Assembly (NCBI GenBank): GCA_038231455.1 | Contig: JBBRLI010000003.1 | Coordinates: 96,001 to 160,000, forward strand | Direction of reading: 5' to 3' | From: Vulcanimicrobiales bacterium | Lineage (GTDB): Bacteria; Vulcanimicrobiota; Vulcanimicrobiia; Vulcanimicrobiales; Vulcanimicrobiaceae | Length of the DNA stretch: 64,000 bases | Shown: in pieces, positions 43,181 through 48,874 of the stretch | Layout of the letters: the number at the start of each line of letters is the position of its first letter | Numbering within the stretch: position 1 is the stretch's first letter | Notes under the pieces: generated by a model | The model's database searches: none | Seen by the model: only the letters and a program-made list of their open reading frames with translations | Told to the model about the DNA's origin: nothing | Translations under genes and position numbers: made by a program

Positions 43181-44412
43181 CCCATCGCGTTGTCGTCACC
43201 GGGATTGGCGTCGTTACGCCGATCGGCATCGGAGTCGATGCCCTCTGGGAGGCGACACTCGCCGAACGGATCGCGATCAAGCCGATCACCCGATTCCCGA
43301 CCGACGGCTACCGCTCGAAACTTGCCGCTCAGGTCGAAAATTTCGATGCGGCGAACTTCATGAGCGCGCGCCGCATCCGTTGGACGGATCGTTTTTCGCA
43401 ATTTGCCGTCGCCGCTACCCGCCTTGCGATCGACGATGCCAAGGTTGCACCGACCGTCGATGATGATGAAGTCGGCGTTTTCATGGGTTCTGCACTCGGC
43501 GGCCTTGCCTATGCCGACGAACAACACGACGTCTTCCGCGAGAAAGGTCTCGAGGCGATTCGCCCGTTGCTCGCGATCTCGGTGTTCGGTGGTGCATCGA
43601 CGTGCAACGTCGCGATGGAATTCGGCTTTTCCGGACCCAATGTCGCAAATGGCAACTCGTGCGCCTCGGGAGCCGTCGCGATCGGCGATGCGTACCGCGC
43701 GATCGCGCGCGGCGAAATACGTGCCGCAGTCGCCGGAGGTGTCGAGGCTCCGCTGGCACCGTTGATCTTCGGTGCGTTTACCGTGATTCGCGCGATGTCC
43801 ACACGCAACGATGATCCCGAGCACGCAAGCCGACCGTTCGATCTGAACCGCGATGGTTTTGTGATGGCCGAGGGCAGCGGCGTGCTCTATCTCGAGCGTT
43901 ATGAGGATGCCGTGCGACGCGGTGCGCGGATCTACGGCGAGATCGTCGGCTACGGTCTCACCAACGACGCGCACCATATGTCGGCACCACGACCCGACGG
44001 CGTAATGGCGGCACGCGCGATGACAAAGGCAATGCACGAGGCGCACGTCACGCCGAACGACGTTGACCTCATCAACGCGCACGGCTCTGGGACGGCGATC
44101 GGAGATGCCAGCGAGACGCTGGCCTTCGGGCGCGCGTTCGGTGACGCGCTCCCGGGGATCCCCGTGACCGCGACCAAAGGCCAGCACGGCCACGCGCTGG
44201 GTGCCACCGGCGCCTGGGAGGCAGCGCTTTCTTTGCTCTCGATTGCGCACCAAACCGTGCCGAAGAGCGTCAATTCAACTGATGAAGACCCCGATTGCCG
44301 GCTCCCCATTACCCGGGAACGCCTCGACCTCGCCCCACGCGTTATCCTCAGCAACTCCGCCGGATTCGGCGGCATCAACGCCGCGCTCGTCTTCCAACGC
44401 GTCGATGCATGA
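43177..44412 (+). CDS. FabF-like beta-ketoacyl synthase
   Basis: RVVVTGIG, catalytic NSCASG, HGSGT, KGQHGH and GFGGIN. Confidence 0.9.
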   Translation: MTHRVVVTGIGVVTPIGIGVDALWEATLAERIAIKPITRFPTDGYRSKLAAQVENFDAANFMSARRIRWTDRFSQFAVAATRLAIDDAKVAPTVDDDEVGVFMGSALGGLAYADEQHDVFREKGLEAIRPLLAISVFGGASTCNVAMEFGFSGPNVANGNSCASGAVAIGDAYRAIARGEIRAAVAGGVEAPLAPLIFGAFTVIRAMSTRNDDPEHASRPFDLNRDGFVMAEGSGVLYLERYEDAVRRGARIYGEIVGYGLTNDAHHMSAPRPDGVMAARAMTKAMHEAHVTPNDVDLINAHGSGTAIGDASETLAFGRAFGDALPGIPVTATKGQHGHALGATGAWEAALSLLSIAHQTVPKSVNSTDEDPDCRLPITRERLDLAPRVILSNSAGFGGINAALVFQRVDA

Positions 44413-45076
44413 TCCGGTCGTCGTCCGCGACGCGCGCAAAGTCTACGCGGGCGAAGGCGCGGAGGTAATCGCGCTTGCGGGCGTCTCGCTTACGGTGAAA
44501 GCCGGCGAGATCGTCGCTCTGGTCGGACCCAGTGGCTGTGGCAAATCCACGTTGCTCAACCTCGTTGGCTGTGTCGATTTACCGTCGAGCGGCGAGATTC
44601 TCGTTGACGGCCGCAACACAAGCGACCTCGACGACGATGCGCTGACGCTCTTGCGGCGCGATCGCGTCGGCACGATCTTCCAGTTTTTCAATCTCTTACC
44701 CGCACTCACGGTCGAAGCGAATGTCGGATTACCGCTGGTCTTGCAGCGCGTTCCCCCTGCCGATGTCGCGAAGCGCGTCGCGCGTGCGCTCGAAGAAGTC
44801 GGGATCACCGACAAAGCGCGCGTCTATCCGCCACAAATTTCCGGTGGACAAATGCAGCGCGTGGCGATTGCCCGCGCCATGGTCCACGATCCGGCGATTC
44901 TGCTCGCTGATGAACCGACCGGAAATCTCGATACGCAGAACGGTGCAAACGTGCTGCGGATGCTGCGCGATCTCGCCGATCGCGGTCAGGCGATTCTGAT
45001 GGCAACGCACAGTCTCGAGGCGGCCGCAATCTGCGACCGCACGATCCGCATGCAAGACGGTCGTATCGTCGGATGA
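44405..45076 (+). CDS. ABC transporter ATP-binding protein (LolD/MacB-like)
   Basis: [16 protein letters not shown] and ADEPTGNLD motifs. Confidence 0.93.
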
Positions 45077-47655
45077 ACGCGCTCTTTCGGGCGCTGGTTC
45101 TCGGGCATCTGCGCGGTAACAAACTTCGTACCGGCGTGACGATCCTTGCCGTCGCGCTTGGCGTGGCAATCGCGCTTGCCATCGATCTTGCCAACGCCAC
45201 CGCCGTCTCGTCGTTTGCCTCATCGGTCAACATTATCTCGAGCAAAGTCAACCTCCAAGTCTTGGGTGTCGGTCGCGGCTTCGACGAGAACACCATCCTG
45301 CGCGTGCAAGACGTGCCGGGTGTGCAGTATGCGAGCCCGACGATCGAAGACTCGCTCGTGGTCGGCGCCAAACCCGGCGATCCGCTCTCGGGCGAGATTT
45401 TGCACGTACTCGGCATCGACTTGCTGCGTCCGCTTCCCGGCGATACGACGGCGGGCGGGCTTCCCGGTACCGTCGCCGAGTCCGCAACCACCACCGCGCC
45501 CGATCCGTACGCACTCGTGAACGCTCACGGCGCGTTCTTAAGCGAACGCGTCGCCGCGAAATATCATCTGAAAGTCGGCGATCCGATCGTCGGCCTTGCG
45601 GGCGATCGTCCCGTCACGCTGCGCGTCTCGGCAATCGTTCCCAAGGCCGTCGCGGGTATCGATTCATCGGTCGTCTTCGTCGACATCGCGACGGCGCAAG
45701 AACTCTTTGAAAAAATCGGCCGTCTCGACCGTATCGATCTCGTCATCGACCCGGCGCAACTGCCCGCTGCAATCGCCGCCGTGCGCAAAGTCATCCCGGC
45801 GGGAACGCGCGCGATCGAGCCGGCCGTGCGGACGAGCGAAATCAAACGCATGCTGCGGAGCTTCCAGCTCAATTTGGCCGCGCTCTCGTACATCGCGATG
45901 CTCGTTGGCATGTATCTGATCTACAACACCGTCGCGATCTCCGTCGTCCAGCGTCGCCCGGAAGTCGGGACGCTTCGCGCGCTTGGCGCAACGCGCGGCC
46001 AGATCTTTAAGACCTTCCTTACCGAAGGCGCGCTCTTCGGCATCATCGGGTCGGTCGCCGGGCTCGTGCTAGGCGGTTTGCTCGCGCAGCTTTCGGTCGG
46101 CGCGGTTTCGCGCACCGTCGACGCGCTTTACGTCGCAAGCCACGCCGATCACGTGAACTACGCGCCGCTGGTCTTGCTCAAGGCGTTCGTCGTCGGGGTG
46201 GTCCTTGCGACGATCTCGGCGGTCTTTCCGGCGATCGATGCCGCACGCACGGTTCCGGCGCTCACGATGCGTTCGCAAGGCTTCGAGCGCCGCTCGCCGT
46301 CGCTCGCGCGCAACGCCGCATTCATTGGTGTCGCGCTGCTCCTGGCAGCGTACGCATGCACGTTCGTTCCCGCAATCGATGACATTCCGGTCTTCGGCTA
46401 CGCCGCCGGCCTCTTGATCATCTTTGGCGGTACGCTTTTCGCGCCGATCGCGATCACCACGCTCGCGCACGTGGGCACGCGCCTGCTCGAAAAACGCTCG
46501 CCCGCCGGGACGCTGGCCGTCGCCAACCTCGGATCGTCGCTCATCCGCAATAGCGTTGCGGTGGCATCGCTCATGATCGCGATTGCGATGATGGTGTCGG
46601 TTGCGATCCTCATCGGGTCGTTTCGCACCACCGTCGTTGCGTGGGCCGACGATACGCTGCGGGCCGATTTATTCGTGCGACCGCTCGGGCTTGCCGATGC
46701 ATCGTACGACTCGCGTTTCTCGCCCTCGATCGTCCCTAAAATTCAGAAGCTCGCGGGTGTCGATGCCGTCGACACGTTCCGCGGGATTTCGATTCCGTTC
46801 CGCGACCGCCTCACGACGCTGGGTGCGACCGACTTTTATTCAGCTGCGGATCGAAACAAGCTGCGTTTCATCGGGGCGACCGATATGCGCGCGCTCGCGC
46901 ATCAGTTACCCGGCAACAACGCCGTGGTGATTAGCGAACCGTTTGCGACGCGGTTCAAACTCGACCGTGGGGATTCGTTCGTCCTCAACACGCCCGCGGG
47001 GAACGTCTCGCTCAAGATTTTGGCGATCTATAACGACTATTCCAGCGACTCGGGCATCATGCTCATGGACAAGCGGACGTTCGCGCGTCTCTACCACGAT
47101 GACTCGATCAACTCGATTGCCATTTACGCGAAACCCGGCGTCGATCTTGCGCAACTACGGAGCGATGTCGTGCGGTCCGTGTTGCCGCTCAAGGTTGACG
47201 CCCAGACGACGCGTGAATTGCGCGGTCTTGTTATCCAAATCTTCAATCGGACGTTTGCGATTACGTACGCGCTCTACATCATCTCCATTACGATTGCCGT
47301 GCTTGGCGTCGTGTCCACGCTCTTTGCGCTCGTGCTCGAACGGAAACGGGAGATTGGGCTCATGCGGTATCTTGGGCTCCGGGCGCGTGATGTTCGGCGG
47401 ATGGTGTATTACGAAGCGGGGTTCATTGGGTTTCTTGGGGGCTTAGGTGGGGTTGTCGTCGGGGTGCTGCTTGCGCTGCTGTTGATTTTTGTCATTAATC
47501 GCCAGGCGTTTGGGTGGCTCATCGAGTTGCATATGCCATACGATTTTCTTGGCGAGGCTATTGCGCTTGTTATTGTGGCGGCGCTTATTGCCGGGATTTA
47601 TCCGGCTGGGGTTGCTGCTCGTATTCGTACCGCTGAGGCTGTTCGTGCTGAATAA
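45073..47655 (+). CDS. Double FtsX/MacB-type ABC permease
   Basis: Two repeats of TM, periplasmic domain and RRPEVGTLRALG / RKREIGLMRYLG motifs. Confidence 0.9.
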   Translation: MNALFRALVLGHLRGNKLRTGVTILAVALGVAIALAIDLANATAVSSFASSVNIISSKVNLQVLGVGRGFDENTILRVQDVPGVQYASPTIEDSLVVGAKPGDPLSGEILHVLGIDLLRPLPGDTTAGGLPGTVAESATTTAPDPYALVNAHGAFLSERVAAKYHLKVGDPIVGLAGDRPVTLRVSAIVPKAVAGIDSSVVFVDIATAQELFEKIGRLDRIDLVIDPAQLPAAIAAVRKVIPAGTRAIEPAVRTSEIKRMLRSFQLNLAALSYIAMLVGMYLIYNTVAISVVQRRPEVGTLRALGATRGQIFKTFLTEGALFGIIGSVAGLVLGGLLAQLSVGAVSRTVDALYVASHADHVNYAPLVLLKAFVVGVVLATISAVFPAIDAARTVPALTMRSQGFERRSPSLARNAAFIGVALLLAAYACTFVPAIDDIPVFGYAAGLLIIFGGTLFAPIAITTLAHVGTRLLEKRSPAGTLAVANLGSSLIRNSVAVASLMIAIAMMVSVAILIGSFRTTVVAWADDTLRADLFVRPLGLADASYDSRFSPSIVPKIQKLAGVDAVDTFRGISIPFRDRLTTLGATDFYSAADRNKLRFIGATDMRALAHQLPGNNAVVISEPFATRFKLDRGDSFVLNTPAGNVSLKILAIYNDYSSDSGIMLMDKRTFARLYHDDSINSIAIYAKPGVDLAQLRSDVVRSVLPLKVDAQTTRELRGLVIQIFNRTFAITYALYIISITIAVLGVVSTLFALVLERKREIGLMRYLGLRARDVRRMVYYEAGFIGFLGGLGGVVVGVLLALLLIFVINRQAFGWLIELHMPYDFLGEAIALVIVAALIAGIYPAGVAARIRTAEAVRAE

Positions 47656-48874
47656 AATCGTTAAACAATTGTGGCTGGCGGTGGGGGCTGATAGTGCAGC
47701 TCCGGGGACGCTCGTTTCGCCCATCCATGGGCGAAACATCGCTGCGTGCGGAGTTGCTCTCGCCATCCTGGCTTCGCAACTCCTTACAGCCCCCGGAGCT
47801 GCACTATCAGCCCCCACCGCTGGGCACGATCATTTAGCCGCTTCTTCTAAGCCGTTTACTGCTGCCTTGGCACCATTTCGGTTTTCATTTCCTCGAGATC
47901 ATGCCGCGCATACCGATTATCAATCGGAGTGGTGGTACTACACGGGCCACGTCAAGGCGAAAGATGGGCGTCGGTTTGGTTATGAGCTTACGTTTTTTCG
48001 TGTGGGGTTGAAGCCCGGCGATCCGGCTACGCAAAAGTTGCAGTCGAAGTGGCGTGGGAATGAGTTATATCCCGCGCATTTTGCACTCACCGATGAGCGT
48101 GGCAAGACGTTCGTGCATTACGAGCGGTTTGCTCGGGAGGCGCTTGGGGCTGGGCGGGCTTCGACGAAGGATCTGGATGTTCGCGTTGGGGATTGGTTTG
48201 TGAAGGGTGATGGGCCGATGCAGATGCATGCTTCGGCTGGTGGTGCTTCGATTTCGTTTTCGCAAGCCTCTGAGAAACCGCCGGCTGTTCATGGGCATGA
48301 TGGGGTTTCGAAGAAGGGGCCTTGTCGTTCGTGTGCTTCGCACTACTACTCGCTTACACGGTTGCATACGACGGGGACGCTTGTTGTTGGGGGGCAGTCG
48401 CTTGCGGTTGACGGGCTTTCTTGGATGGACCATGAGTTTGGCTCTGATGAATTGCAGAAGACGCAGGCTGGGTGGGATTGGTTTGCCATTCAGCTTGATG
48501 ATAAGCGTGAGGTGATGCTCTACCGTCTTCGTCAGAAAGATGGGAGCGTTACGCCGCAGTCTTCGGGGTCCGTTGTTGCTCAAAATGGAGCCGTGTCGTA
48601 TCTTCCGCTCGATGCGTTTTCGATAGCGGCGAATGGGTCGTGGAAATCGCCGCACACCGGTGGCACGTATCCATCGGGGTGGCGCGTCACCGTTCCGGGT
48701 TCGAAGATGGATCTTACGATTGTGCCGACCGTCCTCGATCAGGAATTGAGTAATACGACCGGCGGCATTTCGTATTGGGAAGGCGCCGTTGATGTCAAAG
48801 ACACCGCTACGGGACGCGTTATCGGCGTTGGTTATGTCGAGCTCACCGGGTACGCGGGGGCGATCAGTCTTTAG
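47645..48874 (+). CDS. Secreted lipocalin-like / CrtC-AttH family protein
   Basis: FPRDH...EWWYYTG, WMDHEF, GWDWF, YWEG and GYVELTGY motifs. GTG 47645 overlaps the permease stop. Confidence 0.85.
   Translation: MLNKIVKQLWLAVGADSAAPGTLVSPIHGRNIAACGVALAILASQLLTAPGAALSAPTAGHDHLAASSKPFTAALAPFRFSFPRDHAAHTDYQSEWWYYTGHVKAKDGRRFGYELTFFRVGLKPGDPATQKLQSKWRGNELYPAHFALTDERGKTFVHYERFAREALGAGRASTKDLDVRVGDWFVKGDGPMQMHASAGGASISFSQASEKPPAVHGHDGVSKKGPCRSCASHYYSLTRLHTTGTLVVGGQSLAVDGLSWMDHEFGSDELQKTQAGWDWFAIQLDDKREVMLYRLRQKDGSVTPQSSGSVVAQNGAVSYLPLDAFSIAANGSWKSPHTGGTYPSGWRVTVPGSKMDLTIVPTVLDQELSNTTGGISYWEGAVDVKDTATGRVIGVGYVELTGYAGAISL
47678..47820. repeat. 143-bp branched palindromic (REP/MITE-like) element inside a CDS
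   Basis: Perfect 30-bp inverted repeats at 47678-47707 and 47791-47820 enclose hairpins at 47714-47737 and 47750-47783. Confidence 0.85.

Follow-up and report, generated by a model that had tools for sequence, protein, structure and literature searches.

Where does the export signal of a protein come from when the only hydrophobic stretch of its precursor is encoded inside a long palindromic repeat? The question is raised by a 64,000-nucleotide stretch of the genome of a Vulcanimicrobiales bacterium (assembly GCA_038231455.1, contig JBBRLI010000003.1, positions 96,001 to 160,000), here called the window, in which a branched palindromic element of ~165 nucleotides (nt) lies between the gene for an FtsX/MacB-like permease and the gene for a CrtC/AttH-like lipocalin, in the lipocalin frame. 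A first-pass annotation, made from the letters of the window, had proposed that a repeat was domesticated here as an export signal. Comparison with related genomes supports this proposal: the element probably supplies the hydrophobic export signal of the lipocalin, replacing the type of signal peptide found in its orthologs. The element is not a single-copy sequence whose peptide is shared by orthologs that lack the palindrome, and translation does not appear to start after position 47820. In what follows, G000 is the genome carrying the window (3.7 Mb), G001 is a sister species, L numbers denote loci, and a third species is represented by four identical metagenome contigs (L189-L192). The parts of the element and the start codons that flank it are as follows.

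47635..47647, + strand: putative lipocalin start; GAGG at 47635-47638, a 6-nt spacer and in-frame GTG at 47645, upstream of the stem and 8 nt ahead of the permease stop
47662..47836, + strand: whole inverted repeat with its imperfect outer part; arms 47662-47707 and 47791-47836, 46 nt, 87% complementary
47669..47830, + strand: element as bounded by the family profile (nhmmer match C3:143669-143830, E 1.5e-34)
47678..47707, + strand: 5' arm of the perfect 30-bp stem, GCGGTGGGGGCTGATAGTGCAGCTCCGGGG, encoding part of AVGADSAAPG
47714..47737, + strand: hairpin 1; perfect 11-bp stem 47714-47724 / 47727-47737, with the family loop motif CATCC(A/T)TG
47738..47791, + strand: hydrophobic stretch IAACGVALAILASQLLTA, encoded by the junction and hairpin 2; sole hydrophobic stretch of the precursor
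47750..47783, + strand: hairpin 2, GGAGTTGC / GCAACTCC; stem 47750-47757 / 47776-47783, inner GCCA-TCC-TGGC at 47762-47772
47791..47820, + strand: 3' arm of the perfect stem, CCCCGGAGCTGCACTATCAGCCCCCACCGC, encoding part of APGAALSAPTA
47867..47869, + strand: in-frame TTG, the only alternative start 3' of the element; no purine-rich Shine-Dalgarno-like stretch in the preceding 20 nt, and not conserved

The inverted repeat described in the first-pass annotation is present at 47678-47707 and 47791-47820, where GCGGTGGGGGCTGATAGTGCAGCTCCGGGG and CCCCGGAGCTGCACTATCAGCCCCCACCGC are perfectly complementary over 30 bp, and the two hairpins that it encloses do share a similar core, a CCATCC(A)TGG-like centre. 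The letters of the 5' arm vary across copies and species with pairing retained, hairpin 1 carries a compensatory T-A to A-T change in G001, and hairpin 2 is the best conserved module of the repeat family. The end motifs of the window copy are TTGTGGCTGG on the 5' side and GGGCACGAT on the 3' side. Folding, which had been suggested as a check, gives -129.8 kcal/mol for RNA of the + strand, compared with -65.9 ± 4.2 kcal/mol for 200 shuffled sequences, none of which equals it (z -15.1); for the - strand z is -12.7.

The element was expected to have dispersed copies that BLASTN would find. A BLASTN search of the genome with the whole element returned only itself and short matches to hairpin 2, and by that method it is single-copy. 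Those short matches led to the discovery of the family: when folded, their sites give the same architecture from other stem sequences. A profile search of G000 found 10 copies, and a search with R1, a covariance model of the element core that stops short of full length and contains 46 modelled pairs, found the same 10, matching the core of the window copy at 47688-47810 with 105 bits. The family consists of dispersed, non-coding repeats of about 160-190 nt per copy, each with a long G+C-rich stem that closes a three-way junction with two short hairpins.

The only signal-peptide-like stretch of the lipocalin precursor lies, as first described, inside the element, at 47738-47791 (IAACGVALAILASQLLTA). 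The 12-mer IAACGVALAILA has a Kyte-Doolittle score of 2.66 and is preceded by K, K and R. Over the 18 codons of NIAACGVALAILASQLLT, G000 and G001 differ by a single synonymous change and nothing else, and the third species is identical to the window from 47741 within the codons of the hydrophobic stretch. For comparison with the rest of the family, the frame anchored on hairpin 2 was used to translate every copy (39 real copies, one false match of 40 having been dropped). The four gene-embedded copies in sense orientation are the most hydrophobic of the 39, with 15-residue scores of 2.09-2.78 versus at most 1.65. At the junction, 7 of the 35 others have an in-frame TGA. The reading of the window copy at that point is C-G-V, and it is in these junction segments that this copy diverges most from the family consensus, with pairing retained.

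The lipocalin reading frame through the element

We propose that translation of the lipocalin would start at GTG 47645, upstream of the stem, and be coupled to termination of the permease, and that the ribosome would pass through the whole element. The 5' arm and hairpin 1 would then be read as a long n-region, the junction and hairpin 2 as the hydrophobic core IAACGVALAILASQLLTA, and the 3' arm as a linker of small residues; the product could be cleaved as a signal or stay uncleaved as an anchor. GTG 47645 is the most likely start codon judging from its sequence context, and its arrangement with GAGG is identical in G001. Before the mature part, the frame offers these possible starts: GTG 47645, outside the stem; TTG 47669 and GTG 47681, both within it; and TTG 47867. 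No in-frame ATG occurs between IAACGVALAILASQLLTA and the residues FPRDH, as had been stated; TTG 47867 had gone unmentioned. The counterpart of this TTG in the third species is ACG. That species has a downstream in-frame ATG of its own elsewhere, with no hydrophobic stretch after it, and upstream its permease stop TAG is followed by GGAG, 8 nt and an ATG that opens the basic n-region MLIRRLWR. A start downstream of 47820 appears unlikely, no downstream start being either conserved or followed by a hydrophobic stretch.

The lipocalin frame had been described as running through the element without a stop, and in the window this frame (positions equal to 2 modulo 3) indeed contains none from the permease stop to FPRDH, while the other two frames contain 4 and 1. 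The same holds at all five full loci with the element in sense orientation: there are no stops in the lipocalin frame and 1 to 4 in each other frame. In the three species of this lineage the lipocalin frame alone is open, with start codons 5' of the element. The orthologous element in G001 has an open frame and a 3-nt indel upstream of it, and the third species has insertions of 18 nt and 30 nt downstream of the element with the frame open throughout, such that three of the four indels among the three species are multiples of three.

The lipocalin is the last of three genes in the operon.

44201..45076, + strand: ABC transporter ATPase gene, first of the operon (Pfam ABC_tran 1.5e-34); overlaps the permease start by 4 nt
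45073..47655, + strand: FtsX/MacB-like permease gene, 860 residues (Pfam FtsX 7.3e-38, MacB_PCD 1.9e-20); stop TAA at 47653-47655
47645..48874, + strand: CrtC/AttH-like lipocalin gene, 409 residues from GTG 47645 (CrtC 7.8e-53, residues 95-267; Lipocalin_9 4.8e-44, residues 270-403)

Between G000 and G001, the ratio of nonsynonymous to synonymous divergence (dN/dS) of the mature part of the lipocalin is 0.055 at dS 0.60; by this measure the mature part is under strong purifying selection and the gene is alive. A lipocalin paralog lies outside the window at G000 C3:48266-49165, with 34% identity over residues 19-330.

Lipocalin orthologs with and without the element

The lipocalin has orthologs in 19 of the 41 relatives, a count that includes G000, and in numerous named genomes. 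Four of the genomes (G009, G020, G022 and G036) are unpublished and were used only in tallies, the tree, alignment A3 and one Pfam query (L064); no conclusion depends on them. Orthologs without the element start at an ATGA that overlaps the permease stop, and they have ordinary signal peptides of their own that are unrelated to the peptide encoded in the window. In G000 the ancestral ATG position reads ATA. An in-frame hydrophobic 12-mer (Kyte-Doolittle score of at least 2.0) precedes the mature part at 33 of 39 ortholog loci; four of the six loci below 2.0 are cut by contig ends, and the other two are L083 and L097. At L018 the top-scoring segment is upstream of the start, in the permease overlap, and the element-encoded core is identical to that of G000 (2.66).

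R1 also matches at the same position in other lipocalin orthologs. A second clade lends independent support: at its loci L125, L089 and L087 the orientation and frame of the element are those of the window copy, hairpin 2 is read there as A-L-A-I-L-A-S/P, and no other signal peptide is present; at L084, L086, L088 and L090 the contig ends inside the same sequence. In two more loci of this clade, L085 and L092, the 5' arm and hairpin 1 are missing, and the part that runs from hairpin 2 through the 3' arm is retained. L085 aligns with L089 over 72 nt at 80.6% identity (E 2e-16), L092 aligns with L089 over 59 nt at 74.6% (E 1e-7), and the profile of the G000 copies matches L085 at E 5e-6. The segment retained in L085 would encode, from an ATGA start, a signal peptide of ordinary length, MKIIRWASTGFALAILATLTVVVPPNGVRAA. 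That L085 and L092 are homologous to the element is based on direct alignment; a relaxed covariance search of L085, L092, L079 and L081 gave only noise, plus a local match to hairpin 2 in L085 (E 0.11).

Two further lineages, represented by G015 and L095, carry the element in the opposite orientation, between a native signal peptide and the mature part, where it is read in frame. In the lipocalin tree, which left out the third species, G000 and G001 (support 100/100) are separate from an 11-row clade (100/97), and the backbone is unresolved. Within the 11-row clade, L079 and L081 have unrelated signal peptides, and each of the antisense rows is the sister of an element-free row. Read against this tree, the history of the element at the lipocalin would need several gains, or gains and losses, and a single origin of the two sense-oriented groups is possible.

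The comparative data contain successive stages: a native signal peptide, a full in-frame element, and a truncated element that amounts to just a signal peptide. A scenario that would join them, and that we put forward tentatively, at somewhat less than an even chance, is that the family carries a ready-made hydrophobic core (A-L/P-A-I-L-A-S/P) in one frame of hairpin 2 and that the lipocalin captured it at least two times; the hairpin would then have been under structural selection and have served as a signal peptide at once, and in some lineages it would later have been stripped to a plain signal peptide. If true, a bacterial signal peptide would here have been born from a repeat element, its intermediates surviving in living lineages, and the descent of a targeting signal from DNA that is selfish or structural becomes directly testable.

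Objections and alternative explanations

Several observations weigh against a translated export signal. The fourth indel among the three species, found in the third species at the start codon or before it, measures 7 nt, which is not divisible by three. An n-region of 31 residues before the hydrophobic core is unusually long, and by eye G000 has no clean small-x-small site, ALSA being followed by P. The nucleotide conservation of hairpin 2 is family-wide and extends to intergenic orthologous pairs, where 48-52 of 52-53 positions are kept, and it is therefore no evidence for coding. The element is G+C-rich, which makes open frames easier by chance, and insertion within a gene is otherwise unseen in the family among the 70 copies screened. 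Finally, a near-perfect stem of ~46 bp (-130 kcal/mol) should hinder ribosomes. Such a long stem is a likely RNase III substrate, and an RNase III homolog is encoded in the genome.

The extreme stability of the stem and the presence of an RNase III homolog would suit an untranslated intercistronic structure, acting as an RNase III site, a messenger RNA stabiliser or an attenuator, with the lipocalin starting at TTG 47867 without a signal peptide and the open frame arising as a by-product of G+C content. The other nine G000 copies are intergenic, several of them 8-61 nt past a stop codon, and the core is conserved in intergenic copies too, which indicates that the element has a nucleic-acid-level role of its own. 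However, the candidate TTG is replaced by ACG in the third species and no downstream start precedes a hydrophobic stretch, nearly all orthologs carry a signal peptide and the mature part is strongly constrained, three indels keep the frame, the lipocalin frame alone is free of stops at all five loci, and L085 and L092 have the element-derived stretch as their only signal peptide. We regard an untranslated element as quite unlikely. Somewhat less unlikely, in our estimate, is that the element is translated but that the 18-residue stretch remains as an uncleaved N-terminal anchor tethering the lipocalin beside the permease. By general rules for signal peptides, a run of 18 residues is longer than expected of a signal that is cleaved, it follows a long n-region, and a clear small-x-small site before a permitted +1 residue is missing; in the second clade, however, the hydrophobic core is followed by VHA-A or VRA-A, which fits the -3/-1 rule, and the element-free orthologs look like cleaved or lipoprotein-type signals.

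The direction of transfer could also be reversed, with the family or its hairpin 2 module arising from the 5' end of the lipocalin gene, where the signal peptide is encoded, and then spreading. The same gene does bear the element in several lineages, but the family consensus encodes charged residues in this frame, and copies in G000 and G001 a stop; dispersed copies are more widespread than the gene-embedded state and far outnumber it, the orthologs of most clades have unrelated signal peptides, and in two lineages the element is in the opposite orientation. We consider this origin highly improbable. Under the preferred explanation, in which the element supplies the export signal, the predicted N terminus resembles a Sec signal: a basic stretch comes first, a hydrophobic core second, and the domain downstream of them is one that orthologs export. 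It differs from a typical one in being encoded by a repeat that forms a very stable hairpin, in its very long n-region (31 residues being atypical), and in its unclear cleavage site.

A dispersed family of palindromic repeats

Beyond G000, R1 matches occur in 26 of 41 related genomes, at 1 to 53 per genome: in 18 of 24 genomes of the same family, in 5 of 5 of a second family of the order and in 2 of 11 of a third. Counts are 10 in G000, 9 in G001, 53 in G005, 19 in G003, 14 in G017, 13 in G019 and 29 in G027. The genomes named as relatives of the neighbouring gene are metagenome-assembled Vulcanimicrobiota/Eremiobacterota. Contigs of relatives often end in or beside a copy of the element (L084, L086, L087, L088, L090, G001:C36:15-138 and several contig ends of G003), as expected if the repeat breaks assemblies, and copy counts in draft genomes are therefore lower bounds. 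The G000 copies sit in both orientations between unrelated housekeeping genes, at sites that include the dnaA-dnaN and gcvP-NUDIX intervals, downstream of glnA, and upstream of thiC and dnaX. The dnaA-dnaN copy (L041, G000 C4:199773-199933) is antisense to both genes. An open reading frame (ORF) for an HNH endonuclease (Pfam 3.9e-15; L042:3279-3878, equal to G000 C10:102231-102830) lies 118 nt from copy C10a, the sole copy so placed.

Five G000 copies beyond the window copy have orthologous sites that are also filled in G001. The C9 copy is precisely absent from the orthologous G001 site (G001:C33), the only filled/empty comparison possible, and GTCGC(C), a candidate target-site duplication, flanks the segment that is missing. 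The 5' end motif is still present at the empty site, which would allow a deletion scar, and insertion and deletion of the C9 copy are therefore indistinguishable. The sequence GTGGCACGAT was considered as a repeated empty target and rejected, its 11 occurrences being mostly within genes.

Conservation between copies is concentrated in the interior of the element. Comparing intergenic copies of G000 and G001 (three pairs without a loop insert), 45-52 of 52-54 core positions are kept, and the arms keep 12-19 of 20 positions with pairing retained; among 22 copies examined in G005 the core is near-identical, and the arms differ with the differences compensated. A full alignment of 11 sequences shows compensatory changes in 41 of 57 predicted pairs, and every one of the 46 modelled pairs has changed on both sides in a set of 74 matches (70 distinct) drawn from many genomes. 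Paired cells make up 94.1% of this alignment, compared with 62.8% after shuffling and 38-45% with partners slid, figures that are favoured by the alignment having been fitted to R1. Pairing is essentially Watson-Crick, with 40 G-U pairs compared with 55 A-C among 3171 cells; without an excess of G-U over A-C, again in an alignment fitted to R1, there is no sign that the folded species is the RNA of one strand rather than DNA. We also abandoned the possibility that the arms derive from copying of the target flank during insertion: orthologous arms diverge at 6-7 of 20 positions, of the same order as synonymous divergence (dS 0.6), and ordinary compensatory evolution therefore suffices. Variable arms that keep their Watson-Crick pairing across species divergence, around a conserved core, point to a function at the level of nucleic acid.

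A search of Rfam at a permissive threshold found no family that fits, the best matches being plant miRNA hairpin models, which score 48 and 37 bits where 168 and 137 would be required. The first-pass annotation had classed the element as similar to repetitive extragenic palindromic (REP) sequences or to miniature inverted-repeat transposable elements, known as MITEs, and pointed to a RAYT/IS200-type HUH transposase. The transposase part is not supported: the Y1/RAYT domain PF01797, the only transposase family searched, is found in 6 of 41 genomes and in none of G000, G001, G005, G003, G017, G019 and G027, and no partner insertion sequence was identified by this search. A 143-residue ORF between two inverted G005 copies (L183) is not transposase-like by eye, with no database search made. 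Like REP sequences and bacterial interspersed mosaic elements (BIMEs), the copies are extragenic palindromes, often just downstream of genes, but REP sequences are 20-40 bp long (PMC3733652) and the present element is ~165 nt with a three-way junction. Membership of the REP/RAYT group fails on this size and on the absence of PF01797 from element-rich genomes, including G005 with its 53 copies.

The MITE part of the classification holds in that the element is small and non-coding and has many dispersed copies. As in MITEs and ERIC sequences, the copies have inverted-repeat ends, are intergenic in either orientation, vary in number among relatives and show presence and absence at an orthologous site. 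Unlike the usual MITE, however, the arms vary and the interior is conserved: all copies have long complementary arms of differing sequence, and the shared ends are short only (TTGTGGC / GGCACGAT in G000). Orthologous copies are also kept with compensatory changes, as if selected.

The closest precedent for a palindromic repeat in frame inside a gene is that of the Rickettsia palindromic elements (RPEs), which, in the passages of a 2024 review of prokaryotic MITEs that deal with them, are ~100-150 nt long and often occupy in-frame positions in many unrelated genes, whose products include the translated element; the peptide so added is given no role there (PMC10969869). The term 'signal peptide' is absent from that review (PMC10969869). 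By description, no sequence comparison having been made, the present family differs in that the lipocalin alone has supported genic copies among 70 distinct copies screened, and in that the added peptide has an assignable role, one that is specific and testable. The screen of 70 copies for insertion into other genes gave no convincing case: 18 of 67 long spanning combinations of copy and frame, picked by hand, were submitted to Pfam, and three had a domain. The DnaX and DJ-1 domains begin well downstream of the element, and in the third match the element is at the 3' end of a frame for NAD-GH, a family suspected to be an antisense artefact. A limited literature search found no paper on this repeat family or on a repeat-derived bacterial signal peptide; the family is a new one in a largely uncultured phylum, and its place in the lipocalin gene is a new use of an in-frame palindromic element.

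One further motif follows the window copy.

47841..47855, + strand: CTTCTTCTAAGCCGT motif, read here as SSKP; also found 3' of copies C9 and C10a

A search of the genome for this motif gave four matches, three of them directly downstream of element copies, and the motif may belong to the inserted unit as an extension on its 3' side. In the form CTTCTTCT(T)(A)GCCGT it lies 20-45 nt 3' of the three copies (window 47841-47855; G000 C9:88962-88999; C10:~101880-101924). Next to it, at C9 and C10a, comes GGGTGGTGG, which is similar to the element's 5' end; C9 reads GGGTGGTGGCACGAT, like both end motifs fused, possibly as a deletion scar or as a longer unit of the repeat.

Variants of the family were also seen. 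The loop of hairpin 2 contains the same 33-nt hairpin-forming insert in 3 of 10 G000 copies (C11:36022-36054, C4:164555-164587 and C10:77202-77234; L039, L045 and L046), an insert found nowhere else in G000; the G001 orthologs of two of these copies are without it (122-124 nt versus 156 nt), and longer loop variants occur in G008, G009, G017, G019 and G024. In G005 (L169-L188) the end motifs, GATCGCNGGGC on the 5' side and GCTACCT on the 3' side, resemble the reverse complements of the 3' and 5' motifs of G000, and the core looks as if it had been flipped with respect to the ends, an outcome expected of recombination between the arms. Many G005 copies (L173, L176, L178, L180, L184 and L188) are preceded, at a distance of 15-25 nt, by a second small hairpin repeat similar to CACCCTGAGCTTGTCGAAGGGTG or GTCGAAGGGTGAGC. 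The same hairpin occurs in L087 (~207-236), inside the lipocalin linker, where it is in frame as VTLSLSKG.

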